From a virus, in UHGV virus genome UHGV-1353844: a DNA stretch of 64,000 bases; one strand, 5' to 3'. Made by a program: the position numbers and the translations under genes. Positions within the stretch are counted from its first letter, which is position 1, and every line of letters starts with the position of its first letter. Below are positions 1,594-40,922 of the stretch, in pieces. The notes under the pieces are model-generated. The model searched no databases and was not told where the DNA came from. It was given only the letters and a program-made list of their open reading frames with translations.

Positions 1594-2367
1594 TTAAAAG
1601 ATAAAGTGGCCGGTTAATGGTTCTACCTCAACTCCACCCATAGACGGTGGGGCTGTGTATGGAAACGTGAGGCGAACAGTTGCGCCTTTCAGATAAGCAA
1701 TACGGAAATACGTGGTTAGCAGTGCGTTTCCGTAAGTACAGTCGTTATAGAAAAAACCTTCGGTGGCAAACGTCTTTTCATTGATTTTCGAATAGACTAA
1801 GATACCTTCAACCTTACCGTCTTTACGACAACACAGCCCTTCTGCCGCACCTACGGCTAACAACCCTAAACAGTGCGTGTCGAGGCTGACATTAACAACC
1901 TTAGGAATCGTAAACGTCTCTTCTAACGTTAGGGATTCAACGTCGACCACGTCAGGTAAGTCAGTACGTACTTCTGGCTTCTCAGTAATCGTAAGGTCAT
2001 AATCGATAGACGTTGGTTGCATACCCAAAAACGTCATTAACTGATCACGACGTTTTAGGTCATTAGCAGGGTAGGTAACGTCAAACATCTTCACGTTTAA
2101 CAGACGTTTGAGTTGGGCGAAGTTGATGTTCTTCTTCGCAAACACAACGATTGCGGACATATAGAAAATCTTACCGTCTGCACGCCCTGAAAAGATGCCC
2201 TGTAATTGGTTAGTATTCGAAAGGATGATAAAGGTAGGGTCTTCAGATTCCCGAATGATTTCCTTTTCCATTAACCCTTTGCGTACACGGGTTAACGAAA
2301 CCATTTTACCTTCTACACCAATCGCTAAATGGTCATTACGATAATCGTGGATATCCACTATACGCAT
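1594..2367 (-). CDS. hypothetical protein (257 aa)
   Basis: ORF track; start overlaps dam stop at 2367 (translational coupling). Confidence 0.6.
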   Translation of the reverse strand: MRIVDIHDYRNDHLAIGVEGKMVSLTRVRKGLMEKEIIRESEDPTFIILSNTNQLQGIFSGRADGKIFYMSAIVVFAKKNINFAQLKRLLNVKMFDVTYPANDLKRRDQLMTFLGMQPTSIDYDLTITEKPEVRTDLPDVVDVESLTLEETFTIPKVVNVSLDTHCLGLLAVGAAEGLCCRKDGKVEGILVYSKINEKTFATEGFFYNDCTYGNALLTTYFRIAYLKGATVRLTFPYTAPPSMGGVEVEPLTGHFIF

Positions 2368-3182
2368 TAGAGCACTCCTAACAATTCCGTTACCGTTTTA
2401 CGAGCAGCACCTGACGCACCCATGTATCGCCCTACTTCTACAGAACGCCATTCGAACCCGTAATAAATCTCACGCGTTAGTAACGTATCTGCATTGGACA
2501 ACACAACGCTATTCCCCTTCTCAACCTGCTTAAACAGCGCTCTGGCGAGTTCTCGATGGTCAGCCTGGGAAAACTCCTTCCGATGGTATTGGGCGTGTTT
2601 AGCGGTCTCTGAGAGCGGTATATAAGGTGGGTCTGCGTAAATCACGCTGTCTTCCGGTGTACGCTCTAAAACTGTTCGGAAATCTTCACAAACAATTTCT
2701 AAGTATTCCGGTTCTTGACAACGTTTAGCCCAACCACGAATCTCTTCTAACGGGTAATACACACCGTTAGGATAGCGACCAAACGGAACGTTAAAACCAC
2801 CGCTGCCGTTGTAACGACACATCCCGTTAAAACCGTGACGCATTAAATACAGAAACATTGCAGCACGGTCTAACGGAGCCATATCCGTTTCGCGATTAAA
2901 CAGTTCTCGTCTCTCCATATACTTAATACAATCGTTACCGTCTTCGAATAGCGGTTTCGACTTTAAGATAAGTTCTTCAGGTTGGTCTTTCGCCACGTTC
3001 AGCAACTGAATTAAGTCAGGGTTAGAGTCAGCAAGAATGTAACGTTTATAACGTGTGTTCAAAAACACCGACCCTGCACCAACAAACGGTTCAACGAATG
3101 TTGTACGTTCAGGTAAGACTTGTAATAAGGTGTCGATAATCCGCGATTTGCCACCCATCCACTTTATAATTGGTTTATGCAT
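2367..3182 (-). CDS. dam: DNA adenine methyltransferase (Dam-like, orphan)
   Basis: Motif I FVEPFVGAGSV and catalytic DPPY (YADPPYIPL) in translation; no adjacent restriction endonuclease. Confidence 0.85.
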   Translation of the reverse strand: MHKPIIKWMGGKSRIIDTLLQVLPERTTFVEPFVGAGSVFLNTRYKRYILADSNPDLIQLLNVAKDQPEELILKSKPLFEDGNDCIKYMERRELFNRETDMAPLDRAAMFLYLMRHGFNGMCRYNGSGGFNVPFGRYPNGVYYPLEEIRGWAKRCQEPEYLEIVCEDFRTVLERTPEDSVIYADPPYIPLSETAKHAQYHRKEFSQADHRELARALFKQVEKGNSVVLSNADTLLTREIYYGFEWRSVEVGRYMGASGAARKTVTELLGVL

Positions 3183-4161
3183 TAATTCCGCCTTGTAACG
3201 ATGACATTTCGTCGCCTAACACTAACTCGACGCGGTTTTTCCGACGCTCCCAACTGACGACATCGTCGTCGCGCACTAAAACAAATTCGTACTCGTAGGG
3301 ACGGAATTTAAACAAATCTACAGCCAGGTGTCTAAATGCTGGGTTGTTATTGTAACACCCTATTTCTAATGGTGCTGCTGTTGTCGATGCAATCTGTAAA
3401 GCACGGTACAACAACGCACGCCCAATCCCACGGCCCCGGTGTGATTCACTTACCGCAATGGCTTTTAGTTCGCACTCGCTAAGATTGCGTGATTTAACTT
3501 GCACCACACCCACAATGTCGTTACCGTCCATCCAAACGTAAGTGTAGTGATTGACGTGACGCACTAACTCCACCAGCGTTTCAACTTGCGGCATTATTTG
3601 TCGAGAACGCGTCACAGGGTCAGCATTGATGTTTTCAACAACGCTAGTGCCAAACAACGTCATGAGCTGTTCACGTTGTGCTCTGGTTAAGTCTTTATAG
3701 AAGTCGCCGGAGACGTTCTTCACGTTCGTCGGTAAAGTGACATCCAGTAGCTTACGCGTACCTAAACGATATGCTGTGTGGGTATGTCTAAACCCTAAAT
3801 CGTTAAGCTCAGCAATTTCTTCCACACCTCTGGCAATTCGGTTAAGGTACGTAAACCCAGTATAGTCAAGTACCAATAGAAGGCTCAGTTTGTTCAAACA
3901 CCCAGGTACAATTTCATGCATATACAAGCAGTGTAACGTTGGGTCACCGTAAATGTGTTTTGTGATGATAAACCCTTGGATTGTTTTTCCTTTTTGTAAA
4001 GAGAACGTATTCAGCTCAGTATTGCACAGTGCTTCACGAATCGCCGCACCGTTAGGCCCCGTTAAACATGCCTGAAGCTGAGGATTGCGAATATCTCTAC
4101 GGGTTAAGCGTCCTACGGTTAAATCAGAAGAGGTTCTTTCTATCGTTTTACGATATACCAT
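3175..4161 (-). CDS. GNAT-family acetyltransferase domain protein (328 aa)
   Basis: C-terminal half has acetyl-CoA-binding-like motif AIAVSESHRGRGIGRALL; overlaps dam start by 8 nt; terminator downstream. Confidence 0.55.
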   Translation of the reverse strand: MVYRKTIERTSSDLTVGRLTRRDIRNPQLQACLTGPNGAAIREALCNTELNTFSLQKGKTIQGFIITKHIYGDPTLHCLYMHEIVPGCLNKLSLLLVLDYTGFTYLNRIARGVEEIAELNDLGFRHTHTAYRLGTRKLLDVTLPTNVKNVSGDFYKDLTRAQREQLMTLFGTSVVENINADPVTRSRQIMPQVETLVELVRHVNHYTYVWMDGNDIVGVVQVKSRNLSECELKAIAVSESHRGRGIGRALLYRALQIASTTAAPLEIGCYNNNPAFRHLAVDLFKFRPYEYEFVLVRDDDVVSWERRKNRVELVLGDEMSSLQGGINA

Positions 4162-4218
4162 TTTAATACTCCTTATCGGCTTTCCTCACAACAAAAGAAA
4201 AAGTTGTAAAAAGAAAAA

Positions 4219-4234
4219 GGGAGCCGAAGCTCCC
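4219..4234 (-). terminator. intrinsic terminator (UUCG loop on minus transcript)
   Basis: GGGAGC-cgaa-GCTCCC flanked by A-run; downstream of gene ending at 4248. Confidence 0.6.
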
Positions 4235-4247
4235 TGTTTGTTACAAA

Positions 4248-4931
4248 CTACCAAAGCTTAGAACTAGTGAATGCTGCACTAGAATCTGGAACTTTGCCTC
4301 TTAATTTATCACGCAGAAGTTCAAAGAACATGCGATGATAAGCGTAATATTTTTCCAACCGATTGTATTCAATCAGGTTTTCTAACGCCGGATGAAAGCG
4401 AAGATGTTTGTTAGGACTGGTAAGGGAAAACGGAACGACTTCTTCATTAAGCAAGATAGGATACTTAACACTATCGCCCATTTCAGCATACAACATTTTG
4501 GTGTCGAAAACGAAATAAGCCGTTGGGTGAAAGCCTAACCACGTTGAAGCCTCAACAAAGAAGTCAGTCAATTTACTAGCAATCTGGCTGATCATCTTAT
4601 CGTCTGATTTAAACATCAGGCGCAGGAAAATCTCGCTAATGACTGAACCCGTAAGCAGTTTTTCTTTGTGGATACCTGGCACGACTGCCAGTACCTCATC
4701 GTCGAGTCGACAGACAAGCGTGTACAGGTCGAATACCGGGTAATGGTAAATATCGATCGTTAAACTCGCACGCGGAGTGTAACTTAAGATTTTATCCCCG
4801 TGTATTTCTGTGGCGGGCGGCATAAGCGCAAGCTTCTTGCTAGGCCCACCCTGTTTAACTTCTGCTTCCTTAGTATCAATCGGTTTTTCTACAGTTTCTT
4901 TAACTTCAGTTTTCTTAGTTCTCGGTGCCAT
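4248..4931 (-). CDS. hypothetical protein (227 aa), downstream of early-promoter-like element
   Basis: ORF track; GAGGA RBS; conserved promoter element 4956-5020 upstream; terminator 4219-4234 downstream. Confidence 0.65.
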   Translation of the reverse strand: MAPRTKKTEVKETVEKPIDTKEAEVKQGGPSKKLALMPPATEIHGDKILSYTPRASLTIDIYHYPVFDLYTLVCRLDDEVLAVVPGIHKEKLLTGSVISEIFLRLMFKSDDKMISQIASKLTDFFVEASTWLGFHPTAYFVFDTKMLYAEMGDSVKYPILLNEEVVPFSLTSPNKHLRFHPALENLIEYNRLEKYYAYHRMFFELLRDKLRGKVPDSSAAFTSSKLW

Positions 4932-4955
4932 GATATTTAATCCTCATCTGTAGAA

Positions 4956-5020
4956 CAAGTCGTAAAGAGATTACGATGTAATCTCACTAAGGTAATATCT
5001 ATCTGAGAAAAAATTAAATA
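4956..5020 (-). promoter_or_regulatory. conserved early-promoter-like element, copy 1
   Basis: ~65-bp block near-identical to 40923-40990; minus-strand core AGATATTAC; palindrome GATTACGATGTAATC; ~27 bp upstream of start at 4931. Confidence 0.55.
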
Positions 5021-5022
5021 AC

Positions 5023-5042
5023 CCCCTACCCGAAGGTAGGGG
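5023..5042 (-). terminator. intrinsic terminator (UUCG loop)
   Basis: CCCCTACC-cgaa-GGTAGGGG; A-rich on plus upstream; downstream of tmk. Confidence 0.6.
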
Positions 5043-5049
5043 TATGTGA

Positions 5050-5673
5050 TTAATTCTCTAAAATACAAGCAACGATTTCAGCCGCTTTTAACCGGTAATC
5101 GTCGTCTTGCTTCACGGGTAATAAATGGTGCAGACAACCACCTTCAGTGAGGATGTGGTGGGCAAAGCGGTAGTGGTCACGTAACGCTTCCCAGCTTTGG
5201 TTATCTTTTAAATACTTAACGGTAAGGACTTCATCGTCCCAATTCTTACCTTGTTCTTCTACCCGTTTCTTAAAGCGTGCTACTGCGCCGTCGTAATCCA
5301 CATCTGTCCAAACGTACAAATCTGGTGCGTGGAAATGACGCGTTAGCTTACGTCGGAAAACTTCGTCTTTACCGTCGACGCCCTGGTAAACGACTGTAGA
5401 GGGACAGAACCTGTCGAAAATAACAACATCGTAATCGTCAACAACATGGTCTAACGTGTGAAGGAAATCGTCGCACATCGCTTCGGCAATTTTTGCTTTT
5501 GCTGCGGACTGAATGACTAAACTGCGTGCACGGATACCCGCCTCGGTCTCCGTCGTAGGGTGATTACGGATGCAGACCTTTAACCCCGCAGATTCCAGCA
5601 TACCTTTTACTATTTTGCACAACGTCGATTTCCCAGAAAAGTCAGGGCCATCAATAGACACTGTCTTAAGCAT
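5050..5673 (-). CDS. tmk: thymidylate kinase (dTMP kinase)
   Basis: P-loop DGPDFSGKST and lid motif FDRFCPSTVVYQ (DR-Y/F...YQ); start moved from track GTG (5694) to ATG at M8 with AAGG RBS. Confidence 0.75.
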   Translation of the reverse strand: MLKTVSIDGPDFSGKSTLCKIVKGMLESAGLKVCIRNHPTTETEAGIRARSLVIQSAAKAKIAEAMCDDFLHTLDHVVDDYDVVIFDRFCPSTVVYQGVDGKDEVFRRKLTRHFHAPDLYVWTDVDYDGAVARFKKRVEEQGKNWDDEVLTVKYLKDNQSWEALRDHYRFAHHILTEGGCLHHLLPVKQDDDYRLKAAEIVACILEN

Positions 5674-5784
5674 TATCGTTTTACCTTTACGCACAAAAAT
5701 TTAAACCGATACTTCTTTATTCCATACCGGCGTTCACATAATAGCTATTGGTTGTAATAAATTTTAGGATAAAAAAGAAACCCG

Positions 5785-5804
5785 CCCCTACCGATTGGTA
5801 GGGG
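5785..5804 (-). terminator. intrinsic terminator
   Basis: CCCCTACC-gatt-GGTAGGGG preceded by AAAAAAGAAA. Confidence 0.55.
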
Positions 5805-5811
5805 TAAGGTT

Positions 5812-6417
5812 TTATTGATGGTCAACAATCGGACCACTCCACACTTCTGACGTTTCCGGTGCGGTAAGATTAGCCGCCTGTGCTGACGGTACACACAGTA
5901 AAACTAACCCTTGCTTAGCAAGATAGTGCTGCATTCTTGCGGCCTGTACTGCGGTGTCCACAATAACGAGCTCAGCGCCACGTAGAAGCGCTAAAGCCGC
6001 TTGGCCTTCTTGCGGTGTGGTAAACGCGTCTGAGTCGTCCAGAATGCGTTTGAGGCGGTTATACGCAAGTCCTGTAACGTTACAGTGTTCGGTACGTAAA
6101 TCAACAACCATTTCGTTATAGACCCCCACAACCTGTTGCGTAGAGTTTGGATAAAAGCGAAACGAGGCACGACGACGCGCACGACGGACTTCAGAAATCG
6201 CACGTTGGAGTACCACTAATACGTACTTCGGTGCTGCGTCTGACGTCGGTCTACGCATCTTCGCTAACCGCGCTGCCAAATCGAGAACTTTCGTTAACGG
6301 GTAGCGGTGCTTAAACCCCTCCCGTTCAATCGTCACCCCACGCTTTGGTAGCTTACCGGTTTTGTTGATATACGCCACCGTAATCAGCAGTAATGAGTCG
6401 AGAATCATCTCTGACAT
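5812..6417 (-). CDS. hypothetical protein (~201 aa)
   Basis: ORF track; ATG at second codon with GAGGG RBS 7-8 nt upstream. Confidence 0.55.
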   Translation of the reverse strand: MSEMILDSLLLITVAYINKTGKLPKRGVTIEREGFKHRYPLTKVLDLAARLAKMRRPTSDAAPKYVLVVLQRAISEVRRARRRASFRFYPNSTQQVVGVYNEMVVDLRTEHCNVTGLAYNRLKRILDDSDAFTTPQEGQAALALLRGAELVIVDTAVQAARMQHYLAKQGLVLLCVPSAQAANLTAPETSEVWSGPIVDHQ

Positions 6418-6430
6418 CACAATACCCTCT

Positions 6431-6802
6431 TTAGAACCCCTCGAGAACAGCTTTCACAAATTCATAAACCGTGCGTCGGTGTTCTTCAAGTGGATAAACA
6501 AACTTAGAATAATCGTTGTTCCAGACAACCGGATAGAGGTCACCGTCACAACTTAAATAGCTCTTACGAACCATGTAATAATCTAAACCTACACGGAAGT
6601 TTAACGACAAACTGCCGTGTTTACTACAAACGTGTAGCTGGAGCGATTTCACACCGTCACGGGTTGGCGTTTCAATCGTTTCCGCATACAATACATCCGA
6701 ACACTGTTCTATAACGCTAACGACATCTCTGAGGTTGTTGTGAGCATCAATGGTCGCTTTTCGGAGAGCGTCGGTGTATTGCTGAAGTTCTCGATAGAAC
6801 AT
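6431..6802 (-). CDS. hypothetical protein (123 aa)
   Basis: ORF track; AGGAG RBS 9 nt upstream of ATG at 6802; overlaps 3' end of upstream gene by 94 nt. Confidence 0.5.
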   Translation of the reverse strand: MFYRELQQYTDALRKATIDAHNNLRDVVSVIEQCSDVLYAETIETPTRDGVKSLQLHVCSKHGSLSLNFRVGLDYYMVRKSYLSCDGDLYPVVWNNDYSKFVYPLEEHRRTVYEFVKAVLEGF

Positions 6803-7341
6803 CCTGCTAATCTCCTGTCTCTACCATAAGGCAGAGGAAATGCTTTGTGTTCGTATTCTGCAACGACGTAGGCAGGATAGAACAAAAGGTATTTATAGAA
6901 CGTGGCTAATGTAACGTCTTTCGGGGTAGCCAGAAAGTAATTAAGGTCAGGGTTATCTGGGAATGCAAAATGTATTCCGGTATACACCTGACCGTGATAT
7001 TCACCGTTAAAGGGCGTGACGGCACAACGGGGATGTGTTGGCTCAACGTGTAACCAACGACTCCCTACGTGATAAACACCACGTACCGTCGCGTTTCGTG
7101 TTTTACCCAAATAACGGCAACGAATATTCTTTTCCCACGCAGCACGTTGCGTGGGAGAACCCAGAGAAACAAACCGCGTTAAAGCTTCAGGTGTAAAGTA
7201 ATCAAAAATGCCGGTCGGTAAACACCAACACGCTTTATCGATTCGCACCACTCTCCAACCAGGACGAAAACCCACAGCGTAACGCTCTACACCAAAAGTA
7301 TATCTAGACCCGTCGTGAAACGGTACGAATCTTGCAGCCAT
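6709..7341 (-). CDS. hypothetical protein (210 aa)
   Basis: ORF track; abuts GNAT gene stop at 7343. Confidence 0.5.
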   Translation of the reverse strand: MAARFVPFHDGSRYTFGVERYAVGFRPGWRVVRIDKACWCLPTGIFDYFTPEALTRFVSLGSPTQRAAWEKNIRCRYLGKTRNATVRGVYHVGSRWLHVEPTHPRCAVTPFNGEYHGQVYTGIHFAFPDNPDLNYFLATPKDVTLATFYKYLLFYPAYVVAEYEHKAFPLPYGRDRRLAGCSIENFSNTPTLSEKRPLMLTTTSEMSLAL

Positions 7342-7342
7342 T

Positions 7343-7810
7343 TTAGATTTCCTTTATCATTTCCCTGCATTCGGTACGGAATCCCATTTTCTCATACAAG
7401 GAGATAGCTTTAACGTTGTTGTCTAACACATCCAGACTCATCCAACCACAACCTTTGGACTTTCCGTATTCACGGACTTTGTCCATAAGCGCACGCCCTA
7501 CCCCTTGAGAACGTGCTTCAGGAACCACATAGTAATTCCCGATGTAAACGAACGTGTCTTTTGAGCAAGAACCCAATGAGAACGTCATAAAGCCCAGAAG
7601 CTGTTCGTTATCATCCACCGCACACGCACAGAGATAATCTTGAGGCCAAATCTCTTCTAAACGTTCGATGGGGTTGAACGTGTCACGTCCAGTTAACTGA
7701 CTAATACGCACTTTCTCTTCTGCGAACAACATGTTGTGCAGTTTGAGTACCTGGTCGCCGTATAACTTTCCGTATTTACTGTCGGGTTTGAGAATAATAG
7801 TAATACGCAT
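7343..7810 (-). CDS. GNAT-family N-acetyltransferase (155 aa)
   Basis: Classic GNAT motif VVPEARSQGVGRALM ... AISLYEKMGF; start overlaps upstream stop at 7810. Confidence 0.75.
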   Translation of the reverse strand: MRITIILKPDSKYGKLYGDQVLKLHNMLFAEEKVRISQLTGRDTFNPIERLEEIWPQDYLCACAVDDNEQLLGFMTFSLGSCSKDTFVYIGNYYVVPEARSQGVGRALMDKVREYGKSKGCGWMSLDVLDNNVKAISLYEKMGFRTECREMIKEI

Positions 7811-8943
7811 TATTTAACCTCAATCAGCGACAACCTGCACCATTCCAGTAAGCCTTCCGCAACACGCACTAACGAGGTAGTAAACGCATCTTCTAAACGC
7901 AGTGCGTTCTTATACCGAACGGTAGCATCGCGTAACTCACGACCGTCTAACGACTTCAGCTCTTTTTTCATTCGCTGAACTTCATCGTAAATACCGGTAT
8001 AACCAACGCTACGTCGCTTCGTACCACGCTGACGTAAAGCTCGGATAATTTTTTCAACGGCTTCGAGAGCTGAACCGATTTCGTGTAAGTTCAGAGATTT
8101 GATTGTGTGGCCAAAATCACCATCACGGGCAATCGCCCACTCAATCTTACCGTTGTCGTGTTCAACGACCACCACGTTACCTGGCCACGGATACGCTTTC
8201 ACCGTTTTAAACGGATCGATAATACCGAACAACCCTGCACTACGTTTAATCGCCCAGTTCGTTGAGCGGCCTACTTTCTCCAAGCCACTCTCAGTAACTT
8301 TCTTGCTCTTACCGATAATGGTGCGCGTTTTAACGGTATACTCGTTGACCATCGCATCCATTGCGTTCAGGTTCTTACTGAACTCAATACACGCTTTTAC
8401 GTTAGGTTTGTCTTCTAAACAAACTTTGGTCGTCCAGCTTCCCGTGTCGCAGTCAACCGGTTTTAAGGTGTCTTTGTCACCGATTAAACTTAGACGAGCA
8501 TTTAACTTTTGCAGTTTGCGCTCTAAGGTCGTTGCTTTAGACGTCGCTTCTTTTAATTCCTTAATGACTTCTTTACCCGCAACTTCGGCAAAATCCACAA
8601 AACGTAAAGCAAGTTGTTTGGAATGTTTACCTGCGAAATTCGCTGATGCTTTTGCACCTGCACTGGCAGCACGCCCTGCTACCCGACTTACGCCACGAAC
8701 CGCACGTCCGGTGAGTCGTGCAGCCGCTTTGCCTATCCCTTTATCAGGTTCCGTGTCTGACAAAAACTGCGCACGGTGCATCATGGCCGCAGACTCTGAC
8801 GCAACAACCACATCATCCAAAAGCCAACGTTTACGGATAGCAACGATAGCCGGATAATTGTCTTTTACTCCAATGGATTCTAACGCTACGAGTCGGTCGT
8901 AATCGTCACAAAGCACTTCTAAGTCGCTATCTAACGTTGACAT
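7810..8943 (-). CDS. hypothetical protein, tandem paralog A (377 aa)
   Basis: ORF track; C-terminal ~150 aa alignable with the next gene (AYPWPGNVVVV / YTGIYDEV / RLEDAFTT). Confidence 0.6.
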   Translation of the reverse strand: MSTLDSDLEVLCDDYDRLVALESIGVKDNYPAIVAIRKRWLLDDVVVASESAAMMHRAQFLSDTEPDKGIGKAAARLTGRAVRGVSRVAGRAASAGAKASANFAGKHSKQLALRFVDFAEVAGKEVIKELKEATSKATTLERKLQKLNARLSLIGDKDTLKPVDCDTGSWTTKVCLEDKPNVKACIEFSKNLNAMDAMVNEYTVKTRTIIGKSKKVTESGLEKVGRSTNWAIKRSAGLFGIIDPFKTVKAYPWPGNVVVVEHDNGKIEWAIARDGDFGHTIKSLNLHEIGSALEAVEKIIRALRQRGTKRRSVGYTGIYDEVQRMKKELKSLDGRELRDATVRYKNALRLEDAFTTSLVRVAEGLLEWCRLSLIEVK

Positions 8944-8949
8944 GATAAT

Positions 8950-9834
8950 TTACTCGTTTGCTTTGATCGTCGCTTTCACCCAGGCTAACAACCCATCCGC
9001 TACTCGGTCGAGTGCAGTGGTCACCGCGTCTTCCAACTTAATAACGTTTTTGTAAGCGCGTTTAACCTCGGAGATTTCATCCCGATCGACTTTGTACATT
9101 TTATCTTTAATCTTTTCAGCTTCTTGGTAAATACCGCTGTAGCCAAAAAGTCCGTTTTTCGCGTTGCGGGATTCCATGATGTCTGCAATCTTACGCACCG
9201 CTTTTAATGCCTGGTGACATTCACGCTCGGTGAGTGCGGCAATAGTGTCTTTATACATCCCGCCGTTACCGATACCGAACGTAGTCTTACTTTTACCCAG
9301 TTCACCCTGCGTAACGACGTAGACGTTTCCTGCTAACGGATACGCAGTAACTTCCGTGCCCATCAAATTAGGGATATACCCCATCGCACGATGAATCGCT
9401 GAACTACTGGAGTAGCTCAATTCTTTTAACATCCCGTCTTCAACTTTACGGTGAACTTCTTTAGGACCGATAGCCATCGGGTTAGTCACAACCAGGAATT
9501 TCTTCGCAGCCGCCTCGAACCCGTTTACGGAATCGACTAACTTAAGACATTCTTTTAAATCAGGGACGTCTTCGTAACACACACGCGCACACCAGGTGCC
9601 CGCAGGAACCACTTTGGCAGAAAACGTTTTGACGTCTTTCAACCGATCTTCTAATCGGTCAGCGTCTTCTTTCATCGTTTTCATTTTGCCGGTGACGACA
9701 CGCTTAGCATCGTGTAATCGGTTGTTCACTAAACCGATAATTTCCAAATAGACCTGGTGGCCATACGAGGCAGAAGAGTCGGTGCGATCGCGAGACTCCT
9801 GTCCCACCTGTTGGCCAATCCAACTACGACGCAT
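8950..9834 (-). CDS. hypothetical protein, tandem paralog B (294 aa)
   Basis: ORF track; AAAGGA RBS; shares AYPLAGNVYVV / YSGIYQEA / KLEDAVTT and a Cys pattern with paralog A. Confidence 0.6.
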   Translation of the reverse strand: MRRSWIGQQVGQESRDRTDSSASYGHQVYLEIIGLVNNRLHDAKRVVTGKMKTMKEDADRLEDRLKDVKTFSAKVVPAGTWCARVCYEDVPDLKECLKLVDSVNGFEAAAKKFLVVTNPMAIGPKEVHRKVEDGMLKELSYSSSSAIHRAMGYIPNLMGTEVTAYPLAGNVYVVTQGELGKSKTTFGIGNGGMYKDTIAALTERECHQALKAVRKIADIMESRNAKNGLFGYSGIYQEAEKIKDKMYKVDRDEISEVKRAYKNVIKLEDAVTTALDRVADGLLAWVKATIKANE

Positions 9835-9870
9835 ATCAAGATTTCCTTTGTAAAACGGTTAAAGTCAAGT

Positions 9871-10425
9871 TCATAATAAACGAAGACTTTCCAACCACTT
9901 ATCCCGATCGGCGGTATGATAATAACAAGGAACATCGATTGACTTCGCGTATTTTACACCCATTGCGGTGCCACCTTTTGCGTTCCCGTGTTTGTCGTGG
10001 TCGCTAAAGTAATATACTGCGTCTACCGGTTCGTCTAAGCGGTCACCTGCGATGATGTTCAGATTACGACCGTGTAACGCCCAGGCAATCGGTGAGAGAT
10101 TATCTGGGTTTGGGTGGAGTGAAGCAACAACTGCTCGGTACTGCACGTCTTGTGGGATATAACGAAACTCTACCTTAGGGTGTATTTTCCCTAACCACAT
10201 TTTCTTTTCATCCGGCAGGTAACAAACGCTCTTAACGTCCTCGGTGCGTGCTAACATGAACTGAAGTTGGTCTGGGCCTTTATAACACCCTCCAGAACGG
10301 GTGGTAATCGTGTAGCCTTTCTTTCGTAAGATTCGAAACCCTTCCCGTAACGTGTCTAACATTTCCTGCATAACGTCTTCCGGTGTTTCTCGAGACCCGA
10401 TGATCGCGATTTTGTATTCTTTCAT
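9871..10425 (-). CDS. Rossmann-fold protein, DprA/SLOG-like (GSR motif)
   Basis: N-terminal IAIIGSR...TTRSGG and C-terminal GGTAMG motifs; start moved to M5 with strong GGAGGTGA RBS. Confidence 0.5.
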   Translation of the reverse strand: MKEYKIAIIGSRETPEDVMQEMLDTLREGFRILRKKGYTITTRSGGCYKGPDQLQFMLARTEDVKSVCYLPDEKKMWLGKIHPKVEFRYIPQDVQYRAVVASLHPNPDNLSPIAWALHGRNLNIIAGDRLDEPVDAVYYFSDHDKHGNAKGGTAMGVKYAKSIDVPCYYHTADRDKWLESLRLL

Positions 10426-10467
10426 GGTCACCTCCATAAAGACCGTCGATAATGAAAAAAAAGAAAA

Positions 10468-10495
10468 GTAGAGAGAGCCCGAAAGCTCTCTCTAC
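10468..10495 (-). terminator. intrinsic terminator
   Basis: GTAGAGAGAGC-ccgaaa-GCTCTCTCTAC preceded by A-run. Confidence 0.6.
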
Positions 10496-10507
10496 CCACC
10501 GTTACTA

Positions 10508-11170
10508 TTACATCTCCAGGCCGCTTAAGACGACTGTCTCAACCAACGCCTGGCCCATCCACACTTCTAACTCACCGTCCAAATCCGCCAATGGTTTCTT
10601 GTTCAGTTCGTTATTGTAATTAAGACCGTCTAATGTCGTGTCGTTAATCACCTGCCCTAAGTGTAGAGGTAAGATGAATCGGTTTCTCGCACTATAAATA
10701 AAAGAGTCGCACTCGTAAACAACCACATAGCGTTCGATAGACTCGTCAAACTCAACGTGACACTGTGAACCGGTGTCCCAAGCGCGCGACAACACCATAC
10801 CTCGGTCTTGGCACATTTTCTCTACGGCGACTTTAGCGGAAGCTGCCCACGTATCGTAGTTCTTAGGTTGACCGTTTTCGAAATCAAACCAATCCAGATA
10901 CTTGGCAGGAATCTCAAGGAAGTCGTTCAGTTGAAGCTTTGTGTAGGTAATCAGTACCGCATCGTTTATGTCGTTACGGTTCGTTAACTTTACCTTATAG
11001 CGCCCTTCAGGTGTTGGGGCACCGACAAGCGTAACGTCTACCTTTTCAGCCGAAAGCTTTTTCCGTACACTGTCGCTGTTACAATAACTAACGAGATTAA
11101 GTAAGTTCTGTCTGTGGCCAACGTCGAAATCAATTACAAAAGACATACGAACTCCGTGGGGGCTAATCAC
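10508..11170 (-). CDS. hypothetical protein (220 aa)
   Basis: ORF track; terminator hairpin 10468-10495 downstream. Confidence 0.55.
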   Translation of the reverse strand: MISPHGVRMSFVIDFDVGHRQNLLNLVSYCNSDSVRKKLSAEKVDVTLVGAPTPEGRYKVKLTNRNDINDAVLITYTKLQLNDFLEIPAKYLDWFDFENGQPKNYDTWAASAKVAVEKMCQDRGMVLSRAWDTGSQCHVEFDESIERYVVVYECDSFIYSARNRFILPLHLGQVINDTTLDGLNYNNELNKKPLADLDGELEVWMGQALVETVVLSGLEM

Positions 11171-11559
11171 TAATACCCGTATAACGGATAACGTGCTGTG
11201 ATTTCATCACCCGCATAAAAGGTTAAACGTTGTATATTAATGTTTTTATTCGTATAAGGTACGGTTTCTAACGTCACCTTAACCATTGCAGAGCAGCTAC
11301 CCGGATCAACAAACTGATAAGTTCGACGTTTGATGTTCACCAGATAAAATCCACCCGCAGGGCATAAGTCCGTTTTGCCGTAATTCACCACCGCAAACTC
11401 ATCGTTTTGAACCACAGTGACGGGTTGGTCATCTGCTTTAAACACAACCGGTTTATCGCCAGGGACAGCGGGTTCGTAACGACTGATATCGTAAGGTTTA
11501 AAATCCGCTAATACAGAAAACGAAAGTAACATTAGAAATGGGGTAATAAAACGTTTCAT
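11170..11559 (-). CDS. predicted secreted protein (129 aa, N-terminal signal peptide)
   Basis: N-terminus MKRFITPFLMLLSFSVLA|DF looks like a signal peptidase I signal; two Cys in mature part. Confidence 0.6.
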   Translation of the reverse strand: MKRFITPFLMLLSFSVLADFKPYDISRYEPAVPGDKPVVFKADDQPVTVVQNDEFAVVNYGKTDLCPAGGFYLVNIKRRTYQFVDPGSCSAMVKVTLETVPYTNKNINIQRLTFYAGDEITARYPLYGY

Positions 11560-12035
11560 CAGTTTACCTCATCGAGATAAACACGAAGCCAAGGCATTGA
11601 CTCTAAACGTGGCATCATATTCCGTGTGTTCGGAGACCAACGCAATGACTCGTGGTATTTCTTTTTGAAACGTTCCCAGTGATACGAGAACGGTTTGGGT
11701 TGAAAACCACGCTCTTTAAGCACTTCTTCCCAAACCAGGTCTTTAATGAAATCGTCAACTAACATTAACACCAGCACTTTCCATTTACTCCGGCGGTAGT
11801 GTCGTTGAAAACACTTACGGAGTTCTGAAAAGTCTTCTCGTTTACTGGAACGTACTACTGGGACAGCTTTCTCTTTATATTGCGAACAATGGCTGTGTTG
11901 TACGATCTTAACCGGAACGCCCCGAACCTTACCAGCATGAATATCCAGTTCGTGTTCGGGAACGATTTCAACACAACGTAATGCTTTTGCTCGATTGTCT
12001 TCTAAGCACCGCGTCTCATATTCGACACGTATCAT
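11559..12035 (-). CDS. hypothetical protein (158 aa)
   Basis: ORF track; stop overlaps next start (ATGA). Confidence 0.55.
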   Translation of the reverse strand: MIRVEYETRCLEDNRAKALRCVEIVPEHELDIHAGKVRGVPVKIVQHSHCSQYKEKAVPVVRSSKREDFSELRKCFQRHYRRSKWKVLVLMLVDDFIKDLVWEEVLKERGFQPKPFSYHWERFKKKYHESLRWSPNTRNMMPRLESMPWLRVYLDEVN

Positions 12036-12051
12036 TTTAGACTCTCAACGG

Positions 12052-12528
12052 TTAATAAATTTTATCCGCAACAGAGAGAAAGATGGGCGTGTTTTCGATA
12101 AAATCCACCAAATATCCTTCTTCCGGCGGGGCGTATGACGAAACAACGTTACCGTTCGTCATACGAAAATACCGACGAGAGTCGCTGGCGATATACCAAC
12201 GGTCAATCTGGTAGCCTTTTTTCGAAAAGAAACACAGGCCGTCAATGTTCGAAGGGTGGACACGACACGTCACCATTTGACGATCGGAATTCAGTTGAAC
12301 GTACTGCAATAAGAACGAACCCACACCGAAACGTCGAGAACCTTCTGCTACCACCAGATAGATAAGATTGCCCGGTTCCCAAATCGCGATACCGTGCGTA
12401 ATGTCGTCTTCTATCGCTAACGTAATACGAACAGGTGTTTCGCGTATCGAGTTTAAGTCCTTGATGTATTCGCGTAATTGTGGAAATTTAGCGGAGATTT
12501 TGTCTTCAGTAATATCTAACTGCTGCAT
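12052..12528 (-). CDS. GNAT-like acetyltransferase-fold protein (158 aa)
   Basis: Weak GNAT signature VVAEGSRRFGVGSFLLQYV; start overlaps upstream stop at 12528. Confidence 0.45.
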   Translation of the reverse strand: MQQLDITEDKISAKFPQLREYIKDLNSIRETPVRITLAIEDDITHGIAIWEPGNLIYLVVAEGSRRFGVGSFLLQYVQLNSDRQMVTCRVHPSNIDGLCFFSKKGYQIDRWYIASDSRRYFRMTNGNVVSSYAPPEEGYLVDFIENTPIFLSVADKIY

Positions 12529-13181
12529 TATTGTTCCCCAATTGACATAACGTTATTAACGAATTCAGCCCACGTAGTGTTCTCGCCGGAAGTAAATAAA
12601 CTGCTAAGCGGAACATTTCGGTGTTTTGGAATAACCGCATCGAGTTTATTTACTGGAACTTCGCTCCATAGCGCCCAGCCGTACAACCCCTCCACCGTTT
12701 TTCTCTCACCACGCAATACTGGTACCCACCAAGCAAACTGTACGAATCTTTTACCGCGACAAATTTTGAGGGTGGTGGTAAAACCGTGGTCTAACATCCG
12801 TACGTCATCAAATTTACAGTTAATTGAGAAAAGGCCGTAGCGGGTGAGTAATTTTCTTATCTGAAACGTCAGCTCAATCTGATAACTCTTCAGTTTATCG
12901 ACGTCCACATAAACCCGACCTTTCCCAACCCCGATTCCTTTCTGTTCTAAATACTCTGCGATTAACGCAGACGTACTCCCTTCTACACCAGGGCAATCTA
13001 ATCCGCCAGATAAAGGTACTGCATTATAATAACGATGCAGCGTCTCCTGGAAAGCCGTCAGCACAAATTCCTCGTCTTTAATAAAATCGATGACCTCCCC
13101 ATTAGAGGCGGACAACGGGGCAAGCTTCAATTCCCAGATAGGAATCAGTAGCGTTCTGGTCATTAAACGTAGTGGTTCCAT
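12528..13181 (-). CDS. hypothetical protein (217 aa)
   Basis: ORF track; GGAGA RBS. Confidence 0.55.
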   Translation of the reverse strand: MEPLRLMTRTLLIPIWELKLAPLSASNGEVIDFIKDEEFVLTAFQETLHRYYNAVPLSGGLDCPGVEGSTSALIAEYLEQKGIGVGKGRVYVDVDKLKSYQIELTFQIRKLLTRYGLFSINCKFDDVRMLDHGFTTTLKICRGKRFVQFAWWVPVLRGERKTVEGLYGWALWSEVPVNKLDAVIPKHRNVPLSSLFTSGENTTWAEFVNNVMSIGEQ

Positions 13182-13241
13182 GATAAGTCTCCATGTTCAA
13201 GTCTCACAGTATGATCAAAAATTGTAAAATAAAAAGAAGAA

Positions 13242-13265
13242 AACCTCTACCCGAAGGTAGAGGTT
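13242..13265 (-). terminator. intrinsic terminator (UUCG loop)
   Basis: AACCTCTACC-cgaa-GGTAGAGGTT flanked by A/T runs. Confidence 0.6.
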
Positions 13266-14495: not shown

Positions 14496-15382
14496 TAATT
14501 CGCTGTCCCTAAGAAGAACGGTGCAGGTTGACCGATACGGATTGTCAGTGACAGTTTATCGTTCGTCTGCGCCAGGTTAGTAAACATCGAAATGTAATAC
14601 AGGGCTTGTACACCGATAGCTTCAGTGTAGCTGAACTTCGAACCTGTGGCAGAGTCACCAGACGTTACCTGGTCTAAACCGGAGCACAGTGCCAGTTCAG
14701 AGATAATCGAACTACGAGGGCTACCGCGCATAATGCTGGTTACGTTCATGTACTCCTGAACGTCGAAGTCCGTCCACGGGATAACCAGGTCTGCACCTGA
14801 CTCCACATAACGGCCATCAGGGATTGCAACGGTACCGTCATCGTCGTAATCGTAATCCGGCAGCACTTTCGGTACCGGGTTCAGTTCAGTATCCGTATAA
14901 ACAAAGTCTTCTACAGTTTCAACACCGTTCTCACGCTTAATGTCGTAGTCGGTGGTTTTTACTGCACGCATGTCAATGCGTTTTAAGTAGTACGCCCAAT
15001 ACTCACGTTTGTTGATGGTTTCCAGAGTACGGAAAGCGTAGTTCTTACGCTGCTCATCAGACAAATCGTTGTCTTTAGTACGCAGGACAAACGGAACGCG
15101 TGAAAACATCCCGGACGCGATAGGTTCTTTAGCTACAGGAACAACATCAGCAACAACATCTGATGTGTCGACCATGTGGCCACGGTTACCAATCGCCATG
15201 TACTGCAAATGGGGACGTGCTTTACCATCCGGCACTGGGGTTTGCATGAGCTTATAAAACTCATTCAGTGTGGACTTCTGTGGGTATTGCACATCGGCAC
15301 CGGTAATTAATGCGGTAGCCAGACGCATCGCATTAAGTGTTACCGTCGAGAGTTTACCGTCGTAAACTTTGACATTAGACAT
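14495..15382 (-). CDS. hypothetical protein (295 aa)
   Basis: ORF track; operon with flanking genes (overlapping start/stop). Confidence 0.55.
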   Translation of the reverse strand: MSNVKVYDGKLSTVTLNAMRLATALITGADVQYPQKSTLNEFYKLMQTPVPDGKARPHLQYMAIGNRGHMVDTSDVVADVVPVAKEPIASGMFSRVPFVLRTKDNDLSDEQRKNYAFRTLETINKREYWAYYLKRIDMRAVKTTDYDIKRENGVETVEDFVYTDTELNPVPKVLPDYDYDDDGTVAIPDGRYVESGADLVIPWTDFDVQEYMNVTSIMRGSPRSSIISELALCSGLDQVTSGDSATGSKFSYTEAIGVQALYYISMFTNLAQTNDKLSLTIRIGQPAPFFLGTAN

Positions 15383-15929: not shown

Positions 15930-18093
15930 GCGTGAAGCCGTCCAGATCGTTAATTTTCACCTGTTCGTTTAACGTCCAATCGTCAAGCGAAGATTTCACT
16001 TTAACAACCCCGGTAGTCGGCTCGTTAATATCCACCACAACCTGCTGTGTTACTTTCACTCGGATACCCATGTAAATGTTCATCCTGAGTTTGATGTGCT
16101 GTGGCATCGACAGTTCTTTAATAACAGGCGCTGCCGGTAACACAGTGTCGGTGGACATATACTGGTGACGCGTAACTTGCTGTACGCCTAAGAGGGGTTC
16201 AATAATGGTAATCGACCCCTCCCCACTCATAGGGATATCCCCTAAGATAGGACAGAGCGGGTCCATAACGTCGTAAGAATCTGACCCCATTCGTGCAGCA
16301 AAATGTACGGTGTAGGATGACAACTTCGTCATCAGTCGTACCATTGCACGCTGAATCTCAGACTGTGAAATCGTTGCGCGGGTTTCCAGGTTAGTTGCGG
16401 TGTTAAATGCGTCAATAGCAATGTCTTGCCACGTCTCCGCCGAAACCAACGTATAGTCTAACCCAAACGTTTTAAAGAACTCATCGTAGTTACGATAGTT
16501 CAGTTTTAAATCGCAACGATAATCACGGTAATGGTAGTTAAACAGCATCATACCCGCTGCACGGTCAGGAATCTTCCGACGGTTTTGGCTATAACGCCAA
16601 CGACGTCGTTTCTGGGTAATGATTTCATTAACCGTGTCGTAAAGTTCATCAGCACTAAGAATCGTTCCGACGACTTCTGTGTGCGTATCGGTATAATAGT
16701 TAATCAACGCATCGAAACGGTTTTCCCAGCTCGGGATTAAATGTTGTTCCATTTCATCGAATGAAACCCAGCGTTTGATTAACACCCCGAACACGTTGAA
16801 CACAGGAATCTTTTCTAACGCAACGTCAGAATACCCTTTATACGCCGCGTACAAGAACAGCGCCAATAACTCTTTTGAGCTAAGCTTTAAGGTATCCCCG
16901 TTTGTTGGGTTAAGAATCTCGTGGTAAATGTTGTATTTCCCTTTCGCGACGAGATGTACCCATTCGTTAAAGAGGTTATGCAGATACTCGAAGCGCTCAA
17001 TCGCTTCTGGGTCGACTGCTGTAACTTCAATGAGTTTGGTTTTCAGGTTAGGGTATTGCGTTAAACTTAAACGGGTATCTAAGTCTTCCTGATACTCCGG
17101 TTCGTACGCCGGGTTATTGTACGCTAACGCGACTTCCTTCTGGATGATGTCCGTCGTTGTTACAATGTCAAGGTCTCGACCAGAGTCCTTTTCCGTATAG
17201 TTAAGCGATTGCTGATAACCGATCGGTAACGGCGTTAACGTGGAATCGTCATCATCCTTCGGTTCGTGTATTTGCTGCGCAACATTATACCCAACCGCAG
17301 GCATCCCCCAACCTGTCAGTAGCGCATCAATCTGCCAGTCGAAAATCTCCTCTTTCCCTGAGTTACGTTCCCAGTAACGAATATTCCGATAAAGAATGAA
17401 TTTCTGTTTCTGGGTCAAATACGGCATAAACTCGTGAAGTTCTTGGTGTGATGCTAAGAACTCTGTCACGTAAAACGAATGCGTTTCCGTGGTATGCTGT
17501 AAAGAAGAACGAATATACCCGATGATGCCGGGTAACTGCGGATACAGAATACAGTAGAATGCTAACACGAACGCATCGTTGTGAACTTTCCACCCTTCTG
17601 ACATATAGCGAACGTGAGCTGCCCTTATTCTGTCTTCCAATCTCGACATCAGTGACGTCTCTTGCGACTCCACTAATGAACTGTCGTAATAGAGGATAGA
17701 GCAGTCAGCCACACGGATGGCGTAGTTTATATCCACCGGATTAAACACACCCCGGATATAAATCGCGTAGTCAGGATACGTTCTGATCAGCTCCTCAATG
17801 TACCCGCCGTTCGAACGAAATACGTTTGAGGTCTTTTTATGACGGGACAGGTTGGCTGTCGTTAATTCTATCTGCTCTTGCGTGTCGAGCGACGTTATGT
17901 AAATGGGCTTATCCCATTCGTGACGTTGTCCTGCTAAATGCAGGTAGTATCGCCACGTACTTCGGTTATCGGAAACGAAACCGCCGTTCTCGGTTATTGC
18001 CAGATTCATCTGTTGTGCGATTGATTCTGATTTAATAATCAGTGATTTCGCCAACGCGATGTTCTGTTCACGAAATATGTTAAATCTCTGCAT
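15910..18093 (-). CDS. large hypothetical protein (~727 aa), possible virion protein
   Basis: ORF track; track start is TTG at 18105, first ATG is at 18093; head-to-head with plus gene at 18105. Confidence 0.6.
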   Translation of the reverse strand: MQRFNIFREQNIALAKSLIIKSESIAQQMNLAITENGGFVSDNRSTWRYYLHLAGQRHEWDKPIYITSLDTQEQIELTTANLSRHKKTSNVFRSNGGYIEELIRTYPDYAIYIRGVFNPVDINYAIRVADCSILYYDSSLVESQETSLMSRLEDRIRAAHVRYMSEGWKVHNDAFVLAFYCILYPQLPGIIGYIRSSLQHTTETHSFYVTEFLASHQELHEFMPYLTQKQKFILYRNIRYWERNSGKEEIFDWQIDALLTGWGMPAVGYNVAQQIHEPKDDDDSTLTPLPIGYQQSLNYTEKDSGRDLDIVTTTDIIQKEVALAYNNPAYEPEYQEDLDTRLSLTQYPNLKTKLIEVTAVDPEAIERFEYLHNLFNEWVHLVAKGKYNIYHEILNPTNGDTLKLSSKELLALFLYAAYKGYSDVALEKIPVFNVFGVLIKRWVSFDEMEQHLIPSWENRFDALINYYTDTHTEVVGTILSADELYDTVNEIITQKRRRWRYSQNRRKIPDRAAGMMLFNYHYRDYRCDLKLNYRNYDEFFKTFGLDYTLVSAETWQDIAIDAFNTATNLETRATISQSEIQRAMVRLMTKLSSYTVHFAARMGSDSYDVMDPLCPILGDIPMSGEGSITIIEPLLGVQQVTRHQYMSTDTVLPAAPVIKELSMPQHIKLRMNIYMGIRVKVTQQVVVDINEPTTGVVKVKSSLDDWTLNEQVKINDLDGFTLDQLPK

Positions 18094-18104
18094 CGGAGAC
18101 CCCA

Positions 18105-26094: not shown

Positions 26095-26135
26095 CTGACA
26101 GTCTCCCATTGATAATATCTATCCAAAAAATAATA
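26095..26135 (-). promoter_or_regulatory. early-promoter-like element, copy 4 (more divergent)
   Basis: Plus-strand TTGATAATATCTATCCAAAAAATAATAG resembles copies 1-3; upstream of gene 25002..26012. Confidence 0.4.
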
Positions 26136-30597: not shown

Positions 30598-30615
30598 GGG
30601 GAGCTTCGGCTCCCC
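30598..30615 (+). other. UUCG stem-loop immediately after stop of plus gene (no U-tract)
   Basis: GGGGAGC-ttcg-GCTCCCC starting 5 nt after stop; likely 3' stability element. Confidence 0.4.
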
Positions 30616-30699
30616 CTACGACCCCTTATGCGTCCCGAAAAGCAAAAAAAAACAAGACATCTAATATTTATGAACGAAAGTCAACTACTGAACTAAGTA

Positions 30700-30725
30700 G
30701 GGGGTGGTAGCACACCCCCTTTTAT
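30700..30725 (+). terminator. intrinsic terminator (GGGGTG...CACCCC family)
   Basis: Hairpin followed by TTTTATT; same stem as hairpins at 31031 and 31367. Confidence 0.55.
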
Positions 30726-30728
30726 TAG

Positions 30729-30902
30729 TTAGTAGCGTTCACTCCTTTTTTCAGTGATTATCTGTGTGAAACGGTTGGTTGATGGTTTTAATCGTTTATT
30801 CGCACCGAGTTGACTATACTCGTAGATACGTTGCTGTAAATTGGTTTTTGCTGCATATTGTTCTGCAAGCATTTTGTCAGTAAAGTAGTAACCATTGTTC
30901 AT
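30729..30902 (-). CDS. small hypothetical protein (57 aa)
   Basis: Track ORF shortened to M14, where AAAGAGGG lies ~10 nt upstream; sits between structured RNA modules. Confidence 0.4.
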   Translation of the reverse strand: MNNGYYFTDKMLAEQYAAKTNLQQRIYEYSQLGANKRLKPSTNRFTQIITEKRSERY

Positions 30903-30937
30903 GGTATAAGCCCTCTTTGTAGGGTGATTAAAGAAAT

Positions 30938-31055
30938 CCATTACGTTTCCGTAATGGTGCTGTAAAAGGTACGCTGCACCAACAGCGTACCTTGCTTTAA
31001 CTTCTCTTTGGAAAAGTTAAAGCGTAAAAAGGGGTGTGACAGCACCCCTTTTTAT
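30938..31055. other. four-hairpin structured intergenic module 1
   Basis: Consecutive hairpins at 30938-30957, 30968-30991, 30995-31022 and 31031-31048 followed by T-run; homologous to module 2. Confidence 0.55.
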
Positions 31056-31060
31056 TACAC

Positions 31061-31246
31061 CTACGACCACCAACTCGGCAGGTTACTGTACGAAGCTTTA
31101 CGCTTCACAGTCCCACAGCTGGGCTGTGGTCCAGGGGCAGTAATCAGACCACGCATGGCGTAGTCGTTCATGTGTGCCTTGAACCTACTTTCCCTAAACT
31201 GTGTTAATTTCGTTTGTTTTAAAACTTCCTTACGTAAATCAGGCAT
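31061..31246 (-). CDS. small hypothetical protein (61 aa)
   Basis: ORF track; GAGGT 8 nt upstream; flanked by four-hairpin modules. Confidence 0.35.
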   Translation of the reverse strand: MPDLRKEVLKQTKLTQFRESRFKAHMNDYAMRGLITAPGPQPSCGTVKRKASYSNLPSWWS

Positions 31247-31276
31247 TTTGATACCTCACTTAGTGTCTTAATGTTA

Positions 31277-31395
31277 GGCTAACAGTTCGTTAGCCGCCTA
31301 AGTAGGGACTGCCTATACAGTCCCTACTGCTTTATCTTCTCTTTCGAAAAGATAAAGCTATGATAAGGGGTGTGTCACCACCCCTTGTTTTTTTA
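31277..31395. other. four-hairpin structured intergenic module 2
   Basis: Hairpins at 31277-31295, 31302-31327, 31330-31357 and 31367-31384 followed by T-run; hairpin 3 differs from module 1 by compensatory changes (aac/gtt vs atc/gat). Confidence 0.55.
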
Positions 31396-31554: not shown

Positions 31555-31598
31555 GAACTTTTCTCCTATGTTGAAGTTGCGAAAATAAATAAAGTGTA

Positions 31599-31624
31599 CC
31601 CCTAATCCCGAAAAGGATTAGGGG
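31599..31624 (-). terminator. intrinsic terminator
   Basis: CCCCTAATCC-cgaaaa-GGATTAGGGG; A-rich upstream on plus. Confidence 0.6.
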
Positions 31625-40899: not shown

Positions 40900-40922
40900 G
40901 TTATTTCTCCTAAACGTAATAA

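Follow-up and report, generated by a model that had tools for sequence, protein, structure and literature searches.

Results

Three GNAT-fold genes in a jumbo phage genome

The 64,000-nucleotide stretch of viral DNA analyzed here (UHGV virus genome UHGV-1353844; the whole stretch is referred to as the window) carries three genes for GNAT-type acetyltransferases, which we designate GNAT A, GNAT B, and GNAT C. An original prediction, made from the sequence alone, had placed three such genes in the window, and open reading frames (ORFs) of 328, 155, and 158 amino acids (aa) lie exactly where it put them, all on the minus strand. The three genes and the two domains of A are as follows.

3175..4161, minus strand: GNAT A, 328 aa, predicted tandem GNAT, positional ortholog of SPN3US_0104
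about 3763-4122 (aa 14-133), minus strand: N-terminal pseudo-GNAT domain of A, without an acetyl-CoA motif and with E83-I-V-P-G-C-L-N in its place
about 3274-3723 (aa 147-296), minus strand: C-terminal GNAT domain of A, with motif A R242-G-R-G245-I-G247
7343..7810, minus strand: GNAT B, 155 aa, canonical single-domain GNAT, ortholog of SPN3US_0095 (Pfam, PHROG 3810, orthologs)
12052..12528, minus strand: GNAT C, 158 aa, SPN3US gp88-type phage acetyltransferase (PHROG 7861, 7DQG, AlphaFold2 [AF2]/Foldseek, family alignment)

All three proteins have an intact and family-conserved motif A, the pyrophosphate-binding acetyl-CoA motif of the beta4-alpha3 loop (pattern R/Q-x-x-G-x-G/A). In B it reads R100-S-Q-G103-V-G105, and in C it reads R65-R-F-G68-V-G70. 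Profile and structure matches, described below for each protein, agree with the motif, and we conclude that all three have the GNAT fold. They belong to different PHROG families: A to 8663 (unknown function), B to 3810, and C to 7861 (both acetyltransferase), with B and C matching from end to end. Pairwise BLASTP among B, C, and the separate N- and C-terminal domains of A gave no significant similarity (best E value, 0.036), and recent duplication as the source of the trio was therefore rejected. Neither phmmer searches with A, B, and C against all ORFs of the window nor Pfam scans of its other large ORFs found a fourth GNAT.

By simple arithmetic, assuming uniform placement, the chance that three genes fall within 9.4 kb of a 64-kb window is ~6%, so the clustering is not compelling from the window alone. 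However, orthologs of the same three genes lie within 10.5 kb in the 240-kb genome of SPN3US; hence, the proximity of the trio is conserved. On the basis of sequence and gene order, A, B, and C are the positional orthologs of SPN3US gp104, gp95, and gp88. We consider it likely that they are three evolutionarily independent GNAT-fold accessory genes that have long held fixed positions in this lineage, and not a duplicated family or a co-regulated module.

Megablast of positions 3000 to 13000 against deposited phages gave no match, and we therefore placed the phage through its proteins. With tblastn, full-length matches at 30 to 67% identity came from two groups, Salmonella phages resembling SPN3US and jumbo phages of Erwinia (types Asesino, phiEaH2, Caitlin, and Machina). 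In SPN3US, Asesino, phiEaH2, and Caitlin, the annotated regions share the gene order of the window, with A missing from Asesino and phiEaH2. This order starts with virion structural proteins, gp85-87, GNAT C (SPN3US_0088), and gp89-91; continues with a DprA-like gene, one or more internal head proteins, GNAT B (SPN3US_0095), and gp96-99; and ends with thymidylate kinase (tmk), a helix-turn-helix (HTH) gene, GNAT A (SPN3US_0104), and Dam. From 1 to 18 kb, the window consists of densely packed minus-strand genes. Elsewhere it encodes a phiKZ-type major capsid protein, more internal head proteins, a tail tube protein, and a head-tail joining protein, together with a divergent DnaB-like protein and dihydrofolate reductase. 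Judged by these proteins, the window comes from a previously undescribed member of the SPN3US/Asesino-like (phiKZ-type) jumbo phages of enterobacteria.

Close relatives with ~97% DNA identity occur on contigs of several sequencing runs, and the NCBI names of proteins that match A or B at 90 to 99% identity point to assemblies of Salmonella enterica and Escherichia coli. The host is thus probably an enterobacterium. Proteins 90 to 98% identical to B or A (P0023, P0026, and P0003) are recorded under names of S. enterica assemblies (serovars Wangata and Braenderup, with contigs of up to 220 kb) and of E. coli assemblies; the jumbo phage evidently turns up in data labeled as enterobacterial isolates, via a carrier state or contamination.

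GNAT C is an ortholog of a crystallized phage acetyltransferase

The original prediction described the GNAT motif of C as weak. This holds for Pfam, since C scored 19.9 bits against Acetyltransf_7, below the cutoff of 27, and C is the most divergent of the three proteins. It does not hold for closer families. C matched PHROG 7861 ("acetyltransferase") over residues 1 to 158 with an E value of 5.6e-69, and it matched the solved chain 7DQG with an E value of 7e-61 and 58% identity over its full length. The aligned chain sequence is identical to SPN3US_0088 (gp88), and the Foldseek title of the entry is "Crystal structure of Salmonella phage acetyltransferase." An AF2 model of C had a predicted local distance difference test (pLDDT) score of 91.4 and a Foldseek template modeling (TM) score of 0.82 to 7DQG; its further Foldseek neighbors were generic GNATs (an IAA acetyltransferase, archaeal Ard1 N-terminal acetyltransferases, PA4794, and RimI). 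C and gp88, which come from different phage species, also share a neighborhood: homologs of gp87, gp89, and gp90 surround C as they do in SPN3US. The start codon of C shares 1 nucleotide (nt) with the stop codon of the gene upstream.

When 1.84 billion cluster representatives were scanned exhaustively with HMMER, only 19 relatives of C were found, which indicates that the family is small and essentially phage restricted. D41, D42, R65, and G68 are invariant across this family. C would bind acetyl-CoA as its crystallized ortholog does and may act on a narrow acceptor; the invariant Asp41-Asp42 pair would suit a cationic substrate. The gp88 structure paper by Ki and coworkers from 2022 reportedly identified no substrate and described a "very narrow specificity."

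GNAT A is a predicted tandem GNAT with a degenerate N-terminal domain

The two-domain organization proposed for A was borne out, with the qualification that the N-terminal half of the predicted tandem is degenerate. Pfam Acetyltransf_1 matched only residues 198 to 279 (46.4 bits; cutoff, 20.7). A second profile search retrieved homologs of the SPN3US and Erwinia phage types and two bacterial proteins (~290 aa). In the resulting alignment, both bacterial proteins have a motif A in the N-terminal half (EHRRRGIG and EHRGRGIG) where A has E83-I-V-P-G-C-L-N, which indicates that the phage N-terminal domain has lost its cofactor motif.

The closest known proteins to A are the tandem GNATs MshD mycothiol synthase (1OZP), MAB_4324 (7Q3A), VipF (6WQB), and clavulanate ORF14 (2WPW). 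With MshD, the tandem architecture is the sole common trait. Identity to MshD is 8%, and A scored 22.7 bits against the MshD equivalog TIGR03448, for which the cutoff is 163.1; we therefore rejected A as a member of the MshD family. Unlike the known tandem GNATs, A lacks the N-terminal cofactor motif and the catalytic Tyr, has a phage-specific insertion and a C-terminal tail, and sits in a Dam methylase operon. As in other tandem GNATs such as MshD, a noncatalytic N-terminal pseudo-GNAT domain may shape the acceptor site while the C-terminal domain would carry acetyl-CoA. With the usual catalytic Tyr lost in this lineage, the enzyme may be slow or may use another mechanism.

The gene downstream of A is the following.

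2367..3182, minus strand: Dam-type N6-adenine DNA methyltransferase (Pfam MethyltransfD12, 1.3e-57), in the order of SPN3US gp104-gp105

It overlaps the 3' end of A by 8 nt, which argues that A and Dam are cotranscribed. Both Asesino and phiEaH2, which are Erskinevirus relatives, lack A and retain B and C. In Asesino (18055-18342), the promoter-like element that otherwise lies upstream of A is retained directly before Dam, so A looks like a lineage-variable gene that was inserted or lost between promoter and Dam. The corresponding region without A in phiEaH2 is at about 14864 to 15062.

The original prediction had made its case depend on structural validation of the motifs and on intact catalytic residues. 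The folds validated for all three proteins, whereas the general-acid Tyr (alpha4 position) is retained in B alone, as Y139. In the A alignment, the SPN3US clade and the bacterial tandem GNATs have the Tyr, the window has Ala280, and its closer relatives have Val or Phe; in C the site is occupied by the near-invariant Phe101. These replacements could mean that A, C, or both retain the GNAT fold but no catalytic activity and act as sensors or scaffolds that do no more than bind acetyl-CoA. We consider this unlikely: motif A is intact and conserved in both proteins, both genes are conserved across many phage genera, and the invariant D41-D42 pair of C suggests a conserved functional site. Moreover, the general-acid Tyr is absent from many active GNATs.

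GNAT B belongs to a family with spermidine acetyltransferase activity

B is the canonical GNAT that it had been taken for. It scored 69.3 bits against Pfam Acetyltransf_1 (cutoff, 20.7) and matched PHROG 3810 at 2.5e-44, and its Y139, which aligns with Tyr140 of 2BEI, is invariant among 24 family members. Identity to orthologs is 45 to 51% (phiEaH2, 50%; Caitlin, 45%; SPN3US, 48%, over 155 aa). By sequence, the nearest solved relatives are diamine acetyltransferase 2/SSAT2 (2BEI; E value, 8e-10), nourseothricin acetyltransferase, the Dpa polyamine acetyltransferase, and AAC(6')-Iy; matched entries include 5C82 and 8A9O. The best-scoring of these, human SSAT2/thialysine acetyltransferase (2BEI) and Acinetobacter baumannii Dpa (8A9O), are similar to B in the C-terminal half only. 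B reached no cutoff among the NCBIfam equivalogs (RimI, AAC, STAT, PaiA), with PaiA NF053587 scoring 25.8 bits against a cutoff of 250, and no SpeG model was among the matches listed.

Three orthologs of B have been expressed in E. coli lacking speG. YP_007237670 of phiEaH2 and YP_009292176 of Caitlin made N-acetylspermidine, whereas YP_009153389 of SPN3US gave none (Li et al., PNAS 2023; PMC9992855). All three accessions are positional orthologs of B, and each gene lies directly after an internal-head-protein gene. Spermidine acetyltransferase activity is thus demonstrated within the family of B, though not in every member, and small molecules, one of the target classes named in the original prediction, are a reasonable class for B; this support covers B only. 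Given the negative SPN3US ortholog, spermidine is perhaps a side substrate, or the activity is lineage variable.

B resembles the two active proteins in full-length alignment, PHROG family, length, and locus, and motif A, Y139, N132, and E147 are conserved; it differs in having Gly rather than His at position 91, and its own activity is a prediction from orthology. Relative to the two active proteins, the SPN3US ortholog carries H91Y and D130G, at sites that are otherwise conserved. Most of the family, B included, has Asp at position 130, and the SPN3US clade has Gly. Position 91, which is Glu92 in SSAT, is His in the two active orthologs, Tyr in SPN3US, and Gly in B. As a predictor of activity, position 91 was rejected, because a catalytic base would not vary across the family as this residue does (H, Y, G, S, L). 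The substrate of B is most likely a small polycationic amine, spermidine or a related polyamine, with acetyl-CoA as the donor. Tyr139 would serve as the general acid, as in SSAT-type enzymes, and acetylation would leave the infected cell with less free spermidine. B would be made together with the internal head proteins and, if so, is probably not an immediate-early gene.

The position of B invites a different reading, in which it is a protein acetyltransferase tied to head assembly that acetylates internal head or ejection proteins, or is packaged with them, and spermidine acetylation is a side reaction of overexpression. The adjacency of an internal-head-protein gene and B is strict in every relative inspected. 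Their codons overlap or nearly abut in the window (where the start codon of B overlaps the upstream stop codon by 1 nt), SPN3US, Asesino, phiEaH2, and Caitlin, and the negative result for the SPN3US ortholog (PMC9992855) would also fit. However, gp95 is not mentioned in the SPN3US head-proteome and head-genetics literature examined, and the mass-spectral paper mentions no acetylation (PMC10052503). The best solved sequence matches of B are acetyltransferases of small molecules (diamine, nourseothricin, polyamine, and aminoglycoside), and two orthologs acetylate spermidine in vivo (PMC9992855). We regard a role in head assembly as quite unlikely and retain acetylation of a polyamine as the preferred reading. 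The same literature, including one supplement, mentions neither gp88 nor gp104, and virion packaging of the three proteins is thus neither shown nor excluded.

The three genes lie in separate transcription units

Strong coding-strand terminators, each a hairpin with a T-run, are located at 13265-13242, 10497-10466, 5804-5785, 5042-5023, and 4235-4218, and A, B, and C lie in three separate terminator-bounded transcription units. The unit of C (about 13227 down to 10508) comprises a gp87-like gene, C, and three unknown genes. That of B (about 10437 down to 5812) comprises the DprA-like gene, a small ORF, two internal head proteins, B, and three unknown genes. tmk and the gene at 4248-4931 each stand alone, and A is followed by Dam and further downstream genes. 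In nearly all intergenic gaps, a terminator comes first and one of two promoter-like motifs follows; SPN3US and Asesino keep both motifs at orthologous sites. The signals are as follows.

4186..4209, minus strand: promoter-like TTAC-N15-TGTGA after a T-run, upstream of GNAT A; conserved in SPN3US (upstream of gp104) and Asesino (upstream of Dam)
4218..4235, minus strand: terminator (hairpin and T-run) between the gene at 4248-4931 and GNAT A
4992..5004, minus strand: class I motif, AGATAGATATTAC then CTTAGTGAGA, candidate virion-RNA-polymerase early promoter for the gene at 4248-4931
5785..5804, minus strand: terminator (hairpin and T-run) closing the unit of B
10466..10497, minus strand: terminator with a 14-bp stem closing the unit of C
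13204..13227, minus strand: promoter-like TTAC-N15-TGTGA upstream of the gene at 12528-13181 and GNAT C, preceded by the terminator at 13242-13265
337-349, 4992-5004, 26112-26124, 32702-32714, and 40961-40973, minus strand: class I motif sites, intergenic, mostly soon after a terminator hairpin

The class I motif is AT rich and about 20 nt long (YAGATAKATATTAYnTTAGKGAGA), and its five sites in the window are all on the coding strand. Orthologous sites lie upstream of gp99, gp101, and one further downstream gene in SPN3US and upstream of gp115 and gp118 in Asesino. According to a review, early promoters of the virion polymerase can be found bioinformatically in every jumbo phage that encodes an RNA polymerase; since the class I motif fits the published description, we consider it a candidate virion-RNA-polymerase early promoter of this phage group (PMC7598289). 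The class II motif (a T-run, TTAC, N13-15, and TGTGA) precedes A, the C-containing unit, and tmk. The bare pattern TTAC-N12-17-TGTGA is not enriched in the window (4 found, 4 expected), so that class II is a positionally conserved feature only, and the short core GATATTAC was rejected as a motif because it is too unspecific. Sigma-70-like promoters were not enriched either (15 found versus 14.9 expected), which fits a phage with its own polymerases, such as phiKZ (PMC7598289).

The original prediction had assigned the three genes to one early region and proposed that they modify host proteins, tRNAs, or small molecules for takeover or antidefense. The first of these claims is unsupported, because B has no promoter of its own and follows internal-head-protein genes, and the sole class I site within the trio interval (4992-5004) drives the gene at 4248-4931 and not a GNAT. 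The idea that the trio forms an early host-takeover or antidefense module, acetylating host proteins (RNA polymerase, as with Rac of phiKMV), tRNAs (as with the TacT/AtaT toxins), or defense proteins (as with AcrVA5), has some points in its favor. Reviews propose Rac-like action of jumbo-phage GNATs on the host transcription and translation machinery, as speculation only (PMC7824862, PMC13282480), and the authors of the polyamine study speculate that spermidine depletion could blunt CRISPR and restriction (PMC9992855). The protein N-terminal acetyltransferases Ard1 and RimI are also among the nearest structural neighbors of C after its own ortholog. We nevertheless judge such a module to be very unlikely. 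The genes lie in three terminator-bounded units among head-protein and structural genes, they have no pairwise similarity, and A is dispensable in the Asesino/phiEaH2 lineage. PADLOC gave no hit in the window, no curated NCBIfam cutoff was reached, and no tRNA-acetylating toxin, Rac, or AcrVA5 was named among the listed structural neighbors of A and C. The proposed protein, tRNA, and antidefense targets thus found no backing.

Neighboring genes and other features of the window

The trio is interleaved with tmk and two phiKZ-type internal-head-protein genes and adjoins virion-structural genes; the major capsid gene follows ~14 kb farther on in the window. The two internal-head-protein genes in the unit of B are listed here.

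7810..8943, minus strand: phiKZ-type internal head protein gene, ortholog of SPN3US gp94 (Pfam phiKZ_IP, 32.6 bits; PHROG 2497, 5e-74)
8950..9834, minus strand: second, shorter internal-head-protein paralog, 294 aa (Pfam phiKZ_IP, 24.5 bits, below the cutoff of 27)

The first is directly upstream of B and coupled to it, and SPN3US gp94 was covered by peptides in mass-spectral analysis of the head (PMC10052503). The second is dispensable and variable within the species, since by gene calls and blastn the near-identical relative L007 (about 4767-4829) lacks it.

In relatives L006 to L009 (~97% DNA identity), a 119-aa HTH_37/HTH_3 gene (8884-9257 in L006) lies between tmk and a 227-aa gene, at the position of SPN3US gp101, a "putative transcriptional regulator." Precisely this ORF, of about 375 bp, is missing from the window, and the junction at 4929-4935 falls in similar contexts of ribosome binding site and ATG. 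As a consequence, the early-type promoter and its 5' leader are fused directly to the ATG of 4248-4931. Farther away, the listed GTG start (40956) of the ORF at 40258-40956 falls inside a promoter-like motif (...ATATTACCTTA-GTGAGA), and the true start is therefore probably further downstream.

At ~30600 to 31600, the window has three tandem units of ~333 bp, each with a small ORF (roughly 50 to 70 aa). The two units that were fully read each bear 2 or 3 hairpins in a run, with repeats at 30699/31029/31365 and 30993/31328. Searches with ARAGORN and Rfam found nothing in the window, including any tRNA or Rfam family match in these units.

Discussion

We favor the view that the window carries three independent GNAT genes, one of them a probable polyamine acetyltransferase. 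Several observations weigh against the functions proposed above. Ala280 in A and Phe101 in C take the place of the usual general-acid Tyr, activity has been demonstrated for the B family only, and the model of A was built on a shallow 11-sequence alignment. For B, the SPN3US ortholog is negative for N-acetylspermidine at 48% identity, and Gly91 stands where both active orthologs have His, in a column that varies across the family. The timing of expression was read from promoter-like motifs and gene neighbors only, and we found no transcriptome of an SPN3US-like phage in the literature.

Two further readings concern B, one of them together with A. In every relative inspected, B is translationally coupled to internal-head-protein genes. 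B may on that account belong to the head module, either tuning polyamine counterions for packaging or ejection of a genome of 220+ kb or being itself packaged and ejected to act before phage gene expression; separately, the tandem protein A, in its Dam operon, might acylate DNA or a nucleotide precursor in the manner of Mom. We hold this combination to be highly doubtful. That B is a phage-borne antibiotic resistance acetyltransferase of the aminoglycoside 6'-N or streptothricin type is almost certainly wrong, since its weak matches to AAC(6') and STAT models and to the nourseothricin acetyltransferase structure are far under the curated cutoffs (AAC(6') group E, 41.3 bits versus 140; STAT, 35.6 versus 420) and B is vertically inherited as a core-like gene in a lineage of virulent jumbo phages.

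The three genes are orthologs of genes that have been annotated since the SPN3US genome and in its Erwinia relatives, and the finding is for that reason correct but ordinary. Among the three families, that of C has a solved structure and that of B has assayed members. Alone, the finding matters little, and what it chiefly contributes is a correct annotation for three genes of an SPN3US-like jumbo phage not described before. It separates cases that are easily lumped together as "acetyltransferase": a probable polyamine enzyme (B), a gp88-type protein with a crystallized ortholog (C), and a tandem GNAT with a degenerate N-terminal domain (A). Natural variation in B at positions 91 and 130 could help to define the determinants of spermidine activity in this phage family.

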